Assembly: GCF_003334305.1 (NCBI RefSeq)
Contig: NZ_QOWS01000025.1
Length of the DNA: 64,000 bases
From: Escherichia coli
GTDB lineage: Bacteria > Pseudomonadota > Gammaproteobacteria > Enterobacterales > Enterobacteriaceae
Strand: one strand, 5' to 3'
Numbering within the stretch: position 1 is the first letter of the stretch; each line of letters opens with the position of its first letter. Below are positions 60,942 to 63,665 of the stretch, in pieces. The translations under genes and the position numbers were made by a program. The notes under the pieces were generated by a model. The model had not been told where the DNA came from. It worked only from the letters and a program-made list of their open reading frames with translations, and made no database searches.

Positions 60942-61148
60942 GAGTACACTACTCTCACTGATCGGGGTTTTCAGGCACACAAATAATAAGTTTATTCGCA
61001 TCGCGAAGCAAACAGGGGCCAGCCTGTTGCCGATTTTTCATCCAATGATGCTTTCACCAGGCGGCGCTAACCCGGACGTAGACTGTATTACAAAAGCGGC
61101 AAAAAGCAGAGACAAAAAACCCCCGCTTTGCAGCGAGGGTTGGAAATT

Positions 61149-61224
<76 letters not shown>

Positions 61225-61256
61225 GTCACGTAAAGCTTGTCGAGTTGACGGGCGGC

Positions 61257-61285
61257 ATCATATGAATTCCGCCCGAATGTGTCAA
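61257..61285 (-). promoter_or_regulatory. putative tRNA-Ala promoter
   Basis: Minus strand reads TTGACA, 17-bp spacer, TATGAT, GC-rich discriminator, about 30 nt upstream of the tRNA 5' end. Confidence 0.5.
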
Positions 61286-61459
61286 CGGCAAATTGCAACG
61301 TGTAGTTTCAATCGCTGAAAAATCAGGCAAATGAACAATTTTGGAAAACCGCTCGCATTCAGTAGTTATTCATGTCACGGTTTCCTGTAAAGTGGTGTTA
61401 TAAAATGAACTACTAATAGACCCACATACATTCAGGGAATTGTTATGTTCAAGGAGAGG

Positions 61460-61804
61460 ATGACACCAGATGAACTTGCCAGACTGACCGGCTATAGCCG
61501 CCAGACCATTAATAAATGGGTACGCAAGGAAGGCTGGACAACGTCACCAAAACCTGGCGTCCAGGGTGGCAAAGCCCGACTGGTGCACGTCAATGAACAG
61601 GTTCGTGAATATATTCGCAATGCTGAACGTCCAGAAGGTCAGGGAGAAGCGCCTGCCCTTTCTGGTGATGCGCCGCTTGAAGTATTGCTGGTGACACTGG
61701 CGAAAGAGATGACGCCAGTTGAACAAAAACAGTTTACATCCTTGCTTCTGCGGGAAGGGATTATCGGATTGTTACAACGCTTAGGGATTCGCGATAGCAA
61801 ATAA
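61460..61804 (+). CDS. yfeC: putative DNA-binding protein YfeC (DUF1323)
   Basis: Start set at Met MTPDELARLTGYSRQTINKWVRKEGW preceded by AAGGAGAGG, giving 114 aa; N-terminal HTH-like segment. Confidence 0.8.
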   Translation: MTPDELARLTGYSRQTINKWVRKEGWTTSPKPGVQGGKARLVHVNEQVREYIRNAERPEGQGEAPALSGDAPLEVLLVTLAKEMTPVEQKQFTSLLLREGIIGLLQRLGIRDSK

Positions 61805-61805
61805 T

Positions 61806-62198
61806 ATGAAAAGATTACGCAACAAAATGACCACCGAAGAACTGGCTGAATGCCTCGGTGTGGCTAAACAAACTGTTAACCGTTGGATCAGAGAAAAAGG
61901 CTGGAAAACGGAAAAATTTCCCGGCGTGAAAGGCGGTCGTGCCAGACTTATTCTGGTCGATACGCAAGTTTGCGAGTTTATTCAGAACACGCCAGCCTTC
62001 CATAACACACCAATGTTGATGGAAGCTGAAGAGAGAATTGCTGAATACGCTCCTGGAGCACGCGCCCCGGCGTATCGACAAATCATCAACGCGATAGATA
62101 ATATGACAGACATTGAGCAGGAAAAAGTCGCGCAATTTTTGTCACGTGAAGGAATTCGCAATTTCCTCGCCCGTCTCGATATTGACGAATCAGCATAA
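61806..62198 (+). CDS. yfeD: putative DNA-binding protein YfeD (DUF1323), paralogue of YfeC
   Basis: 130-aa ORF whose N-terminus (MTTEELAECLGVAKQTVNRWIREKGWKTEKFPGVKGGRARL) parallels YfeC. Confidence 0.8.
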   Translation: MKRLRNKMTTEELAECLGVAKQTVNRWIREKGWKTEKFPGVKGGRARLILVDTQVCEFIQNTPAFHNTPMLMEAEERIAEYAPGARAPAYRQIINAIDNMTDIEQEKVAQFLSREGIRNFLARLDIDESA

Positions 62199-62199
62199 A

Positions 62200-62240
62200 T
62201 AAAAAACGGCAGGATATTATCTCCTGCCGTTTATCTTTTT
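62200..62240. terminator. bidirectional terminator between yfeD and convergent gltX
   Basis: AAAAAACGGCAGGA-tattatc-TCCTGCCGTTTATCTTTTT. Confidence 0.6.
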
Positions 62241-62249
62241 ACACGCTAA

Positions 62250-63665
62250 TTACTGCTGATTTTCGCGTTCAGCAATAAAATCCAGCGCTTTGTTGATACG
62301 CTCGATACTGCGGGTCTTACCAATTGCGTGAACGGTAACATCCAGTGCTGGAGACTGCCCCGCACCGGTTACGGCGACACGCAGCGGCATACCAACTTTA
62401 CCCATACCCACTTCCAGCTCATCCGCCGTCGCCTGAATAGCGTGATGAACGTTTTCAGCGGTCCAGTCAGTAATCGCGGCCAGTTTGTCACGAACCACTT
62501 CCAGCGGCTGACGCGCTACCGGACGCAGATGTTTTTTCGCCGCATCGGCATCGAACTCAGCAAAATCTTCGTAGAAATAACGGCAGCTCTGTGCCATCTC
62601 TTTCAGCGTCTTGCAGCGTTCGCCCAGCAGTTTCACCAGATCAGCCAGCTGCGGGCCGTTACGGGTATCGATATTTTCCTGCTCAATGTGCCACTGTAAG
62701 TGAGTAGCAACATACTCCGGCGGCAGCGCGTTAATGTAGTGATGGTTCAGCCACAGCAGCTTGTCGGTGTTGAACGCACTGGCAGATTTGCTGACGGCAT
62801 TCAAAGTGAAGTATTTGATCATCTCTTCACGAGTGAAGATTTCCTGATCGCCGTGGGACCAGCCCAGACGCACCAGATAGTTCAGCAGTGCTTCTGGCAA
62901 ATAACCGTCATCACGATACTGCATTACGCTGACTGCCCCGTGACGTTTGGACAGTTTTTTACCGTCATCGCCATTGATCATAGAAACGTGCGCGTAAACC
63001 GGCACCGGCGCTTTCAGGGCCTTAAGAATGTTGATCTGGCGCGGCGTGTTGTTGATATGGTCTTCGCCACGGATAACGTGGGTGATTTCCATATCCCAGT
63101 CATCGACAACCACACAGAAGTTATAGGTTGGGGAACCATCGGTACGGCGGATAATCAGATCATCCAGCTCCTGGTTGCTGAACTCGATCGGACCACGGAT
63201 CTGATCGTCAAAAACAACAGAACCTTCCTGCGGATTAGCAAAACGCACGACACACGGTTCATCATCAGCATGATGCTCATGGCTGTGGCGGCAGCGACCG
63301 TCATAACGCGGCTTCTCACCTTTCGCCATTTGCTCTTCGCGCAGCGCTTCCAGGCGCTCTTTAGAGCAATAGCATTTATAAGCAGTGCCCTCTTCCAGCA
63401 TCTGATCGATCACCGCATTGTAGCGATCAAAACGTTTGGTCTGGTAGTACGGACCTTCATCCCACTCCAGGCTCAGCCAGTTCATGCCATCCATAATGGC
63501 TTCGATAGCTTCCGGCGTGGAACGCTCAAGATCGGTGTCTTCAATACGCAGCACGAACTCACCGCCGTGGTTACGTGCAAAAAGCCAGGAGTAAAGAGCA
63601 GTACGCGCGCCGCCAACGTGCAGATAGCCTGTTGGGCTTGGCGCGAAGCGAGTTTTGATTTTCAT
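62250..63665 (-). CDS. gltX: glutamyl-tRNA synthetase
   Basis: 471-aa class I aaRS with HVGG-type motif ([19 protein letters not shown]) and KMSKS-type motif (KLSKR). Confidence 0.97.

Follow-up and report, generated by a model that had tools for sequence, protein, structure and literature searches.

Repressor c of phage Mu acts in the phage by repressing the promoter that drives ner; its central region mediates oligomerisation, while its tail governs ClpXP sensitivity and degradation. The I-alpha domain of the Mu transposase MuA, for its part, is a winged helix-turn-helix (HTH) whose binding target is the Mu enhancer/operator region (PMC3362531). Here we describe two neighbouring genes, yfeC and yfeD, located at the end of a 64,000-nucleotide stretch of Escherichia coli DNA (contig NZ_QOWS01000025.1; hereafter the window), whose products resemble these Mu proteins. 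Both genes are already named, belong to a named Pfam family (PF07037, 'Transcription regulator YfeC-like', formerly DUF1323) and have published binding maps. What is added here is a match of this family to most of the Mu repressor, together with a critical re-reading of the published regulon. Sequence-profile comparison shows homology between the family and the ~135 N-terminal residues of Mu repressor c, a relationship newly recognized in this work, and our literature search found no paper naming yfeC together with the Mu repressor.

In the initial annotation of the window, two adjacent plus-strand open reading frames (ORFs) separated by 1 nucleotide (nt) had been named yfeC and yfeD, and their related N-termini had been taken as a sign of tandem duplication of an HTH-like module. 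Both ORFs were found in that place, and their names were right, since a megablast search finds that every one of the 5,426 complete E. coli genomes carries region 61000-62300, annotated there as yfeC/yfeD; the genomic position is identical to that of K-12 yfeC (b2398) and yfeD (b2399), with no essential difference. BLASTP aligned 127 residues of YfeC and YfeD with 38% identity and 55% positives (E = 3e-27) and one gapped stretch in the middle of the proteins, so that the relationship of the N-termini was confirmed and similarity confined to low-complexity segments was excluded. The similarity reaches from the N-terminal 'MT.(D/E)ELA...QT(I/V)N.W(V/I)R..GW.T...PGV.GG.ARL' through a C-terminal block, 'MT..EQ......L.REGI...L.RL.I', which the annotation had left unmentioned. 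The Pfam model of the family was matched over positions 1-122 of 122 in both proteins (E = 4.5e-51 for YfeC and 1.1e-63 for YfeD). The two genes are thus paralogues by tandem duplication, each carrying an HTH module, as had been proposed; the duplicated unit, however, is not the N-terminal module but the whole gene, comprising winged helix, linker and C-terminal helical hairpin. This paralogy was already on record, in that one Pfam family holds both proteins.

A search of Protein Data Bank (PDB) sequences with YfeC returned the I-alpha domain of Mu transposase (1tns, E = 0.01) as well as the Mu c repressor domain, and a search with the family profile gave E = 4.1e-6 for MuA I-alpha 1tns and E = 0.029 for the Mu c DNA-binding domain. 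Profile alignment by hhalign yielded E = 7.7e-8 for the family against MuA 1-100 and E = 2e-7 against the single c sequence from the Mu genome, the latter over 91 columns that run past the wing into the C-terminal block. When 11 Mu c relatives were used, the probability was 97.5% and E = 5.9e-12 over 110 columns, in which YfeD 4-121 corresponded to Mu c 13-133. The two halves of the proteins also matched separately (N-terminal halves only, family against Mu c family: E = 9.6e-11; C-terminal halves only, 'AYRQIINAIDNMTDIEQEKVAQFLSREGIRNFL' against Mu c 'LTTTLINMIEELEPDEARKALKLLSKGGLLALM': E = 2.4e-5), and a reversed-sequence control for the C-terminal comparison gave nothing significant (E = 0.29).

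The likeness to Mu repressor c and MuA I-alpha (1qpm/1g4d and 1tns), at a sequence identity of ~21-27%, lies in a winged helix with the wing 'W.(K/T)....GVKGGKA'; with c, it extends to a linker followed in the same order by a hairpin of the form 'E(L/M)(E/T)P.E..K....L(S/L)(K/R).G(L/I)..L(M/L)'. YfeC and YfeD, at 114-130 amino acids (aa), end opposite Mu c residue ~135, and the last ~60 residues of c, which hold a second helical segment and the regulatory tail, are absent from them. Another difference is that c is encoded by a phage next to its operators and ner, whereas YfeC and YfeD are encoded by a core chromosomal tandem pair with no phage genes nearby. For the DNA-binding domain, the link to Mu was already partly in the databases, where a distant family member from Chimaeribacter (Yersiniaceae), which has a different genomic context, is labelled 'HTH Mu-type domain-containing' in UniProt. 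The homology gives a structural and mechanistic template, namely operator binding by the winged helix and oligomerisation by the hairpin, for two proteins that have been only vaguely understood.

As to c itself, the RefSeq Mu record (L099 339-935) annotates the repressor with 174 aa (339-863), and its open frame extends upstream to a TTG, which corresponds to the 196-aa protein of the databases. There also seems to be a second copy of the hairpin-like motif in c ('LDALPEEKRKEILSKYGI').

YfeD was modelled with AlphaFold2 from an alignment of 92 sequences, and the model comprises a winged helix, a linker and a hairpin, whose boundaries and confidence are given in Table 1. The winged helix agreed with solved folds including RacA, pSK1 Par and BldC at 2.0-2.3 Å over ~52 residues, and the winged-helix fold of the family also resembles the solved Mu c domain. 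The Pfam domain HTH_17 was matched by both proteins (YfeD, E = 5e-7; YfeC, E = 8e-4). The YfeD linker coincides with the least conserved columns of alignments A1 and A3, and the C-terminal hairpin of YfeC, which aligns with Mu c residues ~100-133, was predicted as helices in a model of fused YfeC-YfeD. By analogy with the central region of Mu c, this hairpin probably serves as an oligomerisation element.

The product labels of these proteins conflict: MerR in RefSeq, LysR in Ishihama et al., and toxin-antitoxin in two papers, none of which passes sequence tests. The MerR label, the RefSeq product name of YfeD, found no support (MerR_1, E = 0.24 and 0.32); the MerR family is a distantly related member of the winged-helix superfamily, but its long antiparallel coiled-coil helix and effector domain are both absent from the YfeD model, in which a short hairpin follows a disordered linker. 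Excisionase, BldC, RacA and pSK1 Par, a small MerR-like group (HTH_17), share the DNA-binding fold but have other C-terminal parts or none, and the sequence similarity to them is confined to the HTH. Ishihama et al. 2016 listed YfeC and YfeD under LysR (PMC4797297), a label that likewise found no support, because LysR proteins have ~300 aa with an HTH_1 and a substrate-binding domain, while YfeC and YfeD are far shorter and have no LysR domain match.

We then consider the conservation of the locus. A scan for relatives with an 8-sequence alignment, one genome per species, gave 213 loci, the best 80 of which were examined. These 80 loci were all from Enterobacteriaceae, and in 79 of them the yfeD orthologue directly follows the yfeC orthologue, mostly with a gap of 1 nt (range -20 to +9). 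Convergent gltX follows downstream in most of the 80 loci and divergent pdeA precedes in about four-fifths; the same core-gene neighbours (pdeA, tRNA-Ala and gltX) recur across genera. The ratio of nonsynonymous to synonymous substitution rates (dN/dS) was 0.05-0.1 for both genes in comparisons with E. albertii, Citrobacter and Salmonella, indicating purifying selection on both copies, and in the same comparisons dN of yfeD was about twice that of yfeC. A neighbour-joining tree set a short-branched YfeC clade apart from a long-branched YfeD clade. The pair is an ancient whole-gene tandem duplication, kept by selection at a core-genome position. YfeC and YfeD conform to the description of the YfeC-like family as small (~115-135 aa) enterobacterial proteins encoded beside gltX. 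With 78 representatives at 50% identity in a set of 1.84 billion proteins, this family is very small, and its distant members P0137 and P0140 also adjoin gltX; among such distant loci, one holds a single copy and that of Atlantibacter a pair.

Two of the loci depart from the usual arrangement. In Escherichia sp. MOD1-EC7003 (L006 4655-5393), yfeD is kept and yfeC is reduced to its last ~38 codons, and in Enterobacter sp. BIGb0383 (L069 4259-5387) there are three tandem family genes, yfeC and two yfeD-like copies with a 4-nt overlap, the third copy being a recent yfeD duplicate.

Taken as a whole, we favour a model in which YfeC and YfeD are duplicated, co-transcribed DNA-binding regulators of the Mu c type with diverged targets, acting mainly as repressors, and assign to it a probability of roughly 65%. 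According to this model, a single small regulator gene would have been duplicated in tandem long ago to give a two-gene core operon of Enterobacteriaceae, in which one conserved promoter would serve both yfeC and yfeD and their translation would probably be coupled. The recognition helix and the 'GV(K/Q)GG(K/R)A' wing of the N-terminal winged HTH would contact DNA, and the short hairpin behind the flexible linker would most likely oligomerise YfeC and YfeD, as is thought for its equivalent in Mu c. The copies diverged after the duplication, YfeD about twice as fast, and in the published maps they occupy largely different chromosomal sites, at which they would act mainly as repressors. Of this picture, the paralogy, the fold, the homology to Mu, the conservation and the published binding in vivo are shown; oligomerisation by the hairpin, translational coupling, repression of ybaQ by YfeD and control of the yfeD level by YfeC are inferred.

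The initial annotation held the targets of both proteins to be uncharacterised, which is outdated. Gao et al. 2021 mapped tagged YfeC (50 sites) and tagged YfeD (36 sites) in glucose minimal medium by chromatin immunoprecipitation with exonuclease treatment (ChIP-exo), described the YfeC sites as TTC-rich inverted repeats 6 nt apart, classed YfeC, which mostly represses, as a local dual regulator, and profiled a yfeC deletion by RNA-seq (PMC8464067). The binding maps and deletion transcriptomics which had been proposed as the way forward are therefore largely published already, the transcriptomics for the yfeC deletion. In the published RNA-seq data, deletion of yfeC raised yfeD by log2 4.3 (20-fold, adjusted P = 5e-133) and lowered ybaQ by log2 5.2 (36-fold). 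A strong YfeD peak (K-12 NC_000913.3 508186-508193) precedes the start codon of ybaQ by 25-32 bp, and the file lists no other factor there. Since this promoter-proximal peak coincides with a fall of ybaQ where yfeD rises, YfeD probably represses ybaQ directly, a point not discussed in PMC8464067. The level of YfeD would be under the control of YfeC, and on the simplest reading part of the 'YfeC regulon' is really due to excess YfeD.

Several points weigh against the model of two diverged Mu c-type repressors. PF02316 (HTH_Tnp_Mu_1) matched YfeC weakly (E = 0.048) and YfeD not at all, so that neither result was significant. The ten top YfeC sites shared only a loose TTCCGGAA(AC)-like element, with no gapped palindrome common to at least 4 of them, and the eight top YfeD sites showed no clear motif. 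The ChIP-exo peak assigned to 'yfeC' is situated at the 3' end/terminator of tRNA-Ala, which puts it ~400 bp away from yfeC and ~200 bp upstream of pdeA; its NC_000913.2 coordinates were converted with an offset of +1978, which we take to be the difference between the record versions. That yfeD rises when yfeC is deleted may stem from read-through of the resistance cassette rather than from derepression, cassette removal being unstated in PMC8464067. Furthermore, the yfeC and yciT deletions share changes in cusCFB, fimA-I, lpp, bssS, rof, acrZ, osmB and small ribosomal protein genes (Dataset S6), and most of the published 'YfeC regulon' may for this reason be an effect of batch or strain background. 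The published regulon merits re-examination, because yfeD was up 20-fold in the yfeC deletion and because changes recur in the unrelated yciT deletion.

Two regulatory links drawn from the neighbourhood were also rejected. Autoregulation of yfeC, as deduced from the peak named after it, was discarded because the peak lies off the yfeC promoter and on a highly transcribed gene. A link of YfeC to its neighbours was discarded because no expression change was seen: neither pdeA nor gltX is among the yfeC-deletion expression changes in the published supplements.

Only one site is common to the 50 of YfeC and the 36 of YfeD, with an identical start coordinate in both lists. This site (K-12 NC_000913.3 3334932-3334961; L106 633-662) spans codons 8-18 of sfsB (nlp), is the strongest of YfeD (signal/noise 57.6) and contains a 5-bp inverted repeat, CCCGC-N10-GCGGG. 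The identical peak is the strongest behaviour that the two proteins have in common, and it would suit an obligate YfeC-YfeD hetero-oligomer, that is, a single regulator whose DNA-reading heads are of two kinds, as would the adjacency of the genes, 1 nt apart and together in 79 of the 80 loci, and the relatedness of the two C-terminal hairpins. We regard such a hetero-oligomer as fairly unlikely, however, given that the published lists overlap at this single position. A linker-fused YfeC-YfeD AlphaFold2 model, computed from a 30-row paired alignment, also lends it no support, with a predicted local distance difference test score (pLDDT) of 60.7 and a predicted template modelling score (pTM) of 0.27, although this test is crude, with no multimer model or error map, and not decisive; the hairpins had a pLDDT of 50-64 in the fused model versus >90 in YfeD alone.

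The same site suggests a different possibility. SfsB and Mu Ner share 64% identity (E = 5e-29), and the YfeC/YfeD pair might, jointly with SfsB (Nlp), be a host-domesticated version of the c/ner regulatory switch of Mu. If so, the pair might recognise operators or enhancers of Mu-like phages and influence lysogeny, immunity or transposition. The parallel is striking, yet it rests on one ChIP site; near this site there is a peak of only one other factor, YciT, at a different position, and sfsB is absent from the listed yfeC-deletion expression changes. We consider a domesticated c/ner switch quite unlikely.

Alternatively, YfeC and YfeD could be nucleoid-associated or chromosome-architecture proteins with many loose sites, like RacA, pSK1 Par and BldC, which are among their closest solved folds. 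Such a role would fit the fact that 40% of YfeC sites are intragenic, the strongest ones including mukF and sbcC, and that no sharp motif was found. It would also fit the phenotype of the deletion, more extracellular DNA having been found from a yfeC mutant in an earlier screen cited in PMC8464067. The sites are few, though, the strong and specific change of ybaQ coincides with a promoter-proximal YfeD peak, and the C-terminal element is a short hairpin and not a long coiled coil, which makes an architectural role improbable. The roles known so far amount to this release of extracellular DNA and to gut colonisation by E. coli K1, whose yfeC::kan mutant colonised the neonatal rat small intestine more poorly and was less lethal (PMC5847654); in enterohaemorrhagic E. 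coli (EHEC), deletion of yfeC left LEE (locus of enterocyte effacement) expression unaffected (PMC11508082).

A pair of small neighbouring genes that have hardly any spacer between them, and of which one carries an HTH, also invites the label of a type II toxin-antitoxin module, and yfeD/yfeC was in fact a high-confidence RASTA-Bacteria pair in 2007 (PMC2374986), repeated by McCarthy et al. 2018 (PMC5847654). This prediction appears close to refuted and we hold it to be very improbable: YfeC and YfeD are paralogues that share one domain architecture, searches of NCBIfam, PHROGs and PADLOC brought up no toxin or defence-system family above noise, deletion of yfeC is tolerated in K-12, K1 and EHEC even with yfeD up 20-fold in the one profiled, and the locus is a fixed, non-mobile feature of the core genome. 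Equally remote is the idea of a Mu-like prophage leftover without host function, which would account for the ~110 columns of homology to Mu repressor c but not for core neighbours that are the same across genera with no phage genes nearby, for purifying selection on both genes, for a G+C content near that of the flanks, or for the lack of any match, let alone a close relative, in the phage records searched. A mobile-element origin in general was rejected as well, the plasmid matches being to very large records labelled plasmids that are probably chromosomal.

Returning to the favoured model of a co-transcribed repressor pair, we considered where its translation and transcription would begin. 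RefSeq and K-12 assign the yfeC start codon differently (Table 1). The upstream ATG (61445) is invariant across 18 genera, and the five codons 61445-61460 (M-F/I/L-K-E-R) are kept in all loci, with synonymous changes at codons 4-5 (GAG/GAA; AGG/CGG/CGA) that retain K-E-R. Since this synonymous pattern points to a coding constraint beyond a Shine-Dalgarno constraint alone, it favours the 119-aa form of YfeC from 61445 as the probable product. Family members such as P0137 ('MKNEWVTPEEL') are without the internal Met altogether, and the N-terminal extension of YfeD, 'MK(R/K)L..KMTT', is conserved among orthologues. For the shorter form speaks the AAGGAG ahead of 61460, a good ribosome-binding site. 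A single base separates the yfeC TAA from the yfeD ATG, in front of which no good separate Shine-Dalgarno sequence is present; because of this 1-nt gap and poor Shine-Dalgarno, translation of yfeD is likely to be coupled to that of yfeC.

Upstream of yfeC, at ~40-85 bp from its start codon, an alignment of 18 genera shows the elements 'GTCAC..TTTC...TAAA' and then 'TG.TATAA' without variation. A strict consensus scan called no promoter at 61373-61406, yet its conservation makes this segment the likely promoter of yfeCD, perhaps combined with an operator. A TTCCGGAAAC-like match within it (61380-61389, 2 mismatches) is at chance level, there being 78 such matches in the window versus 59 expected.

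Table 1. Positions in the window of yfeC, yfeD, their predicted protein parts and flanking features
Feature	Position	Strand	Basis
Published YfeC ChIP-exo peak assigned to 'yfeC'	61138..61171	.	Peak 33, 2516052-2516085 in NC_000913.2
tRNA-Ala(GGC), divergent from yfeC	61149..61224	-	ARAGORN; Rfam tRNA 63 bits
Strong promoter-like site of divergent tRNA-Ala	61285-61257	-	TTGACA-17-TATGAT, 11/12 matches
Probable yfeCD promoter, possible operator: 'TGTCACGGTTTCCTGTAAAG' then extended -10-like 'TGtTATAAA' (61396-61404)	61373..61406	+	Conservation
yfeC coding sequence	61445..61804 (119 aa, RefSeq PGAP) or 61460..61804 (114 aa, K-12 annotation and initial annotation)	+	ORF list, annotations
YfeC N-terminal Mu-type winged HTH, including wing 'GW.T...PGVQGGKA'	61460..61624	+	1tns match, profile against 1tns, hhalign against Mu c
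YfeC C-terminal helical hairpin ('LEVLLVTLAKEMTPVEQKQFTSLLLREGIIGLLQRL'), probable oligomerisation element	61673..61789	+	Conserved block, alignments A1/A3
yfeD coding sequence, 130 aa	61806..62198	+	ORF list, Pfam PF07037 E = 1.1e-63
YfeD winged HTH, residues 7-61 (strand, helix, helix, strand, strand, helix)	61824..61988	+	pLDDT 74-89
YfeD variable linker, residues 62-87, predicted disordered	61989..62066	+	pLDDT <50 at residues 71-85
YfeD C-terminal helical hairpin, residues 88-123	62067..62174	+	pLDDT 91-96
Bidirectional intrinsic terminator, common to convergent yfeD and gltX	62204..62232	.	11-bp stem, T runs on both strands

At the end of the window, the genes are arranged such that pdeA (yfeA) and tRNA-Ala(GGC) read leftwards, yfeC and yfeD rightwards, and gltX leftwards again, followed by tRNA-Val. 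Between the tRNA-Ala and yfeC promoters there is a palindrome, TGCGAG-N6-CTCGCA, that is conserved in most Enterobacteriaceae genera (alignment A4 columns 123-141); in the E. coli copy (window 61341-61357) the left arm has decayed and the right arm, CTCGCA, is left. We know of no protein that binds this palindrome. An Rfam search of the region returned the tRNA as its sole match. Between pdeA and yfeC the window has one copy of tRNA-Ala(GGC) versus two in K-12 (alaX and alaW), and every top-scoring complete E. coli genome has two copies as well. At this site the window lacks 115 bp, the length of one tRNA plus the 39-bp spacer; recombination between the repeats would be expected to give such a loss, and so would a collapsed assembly.

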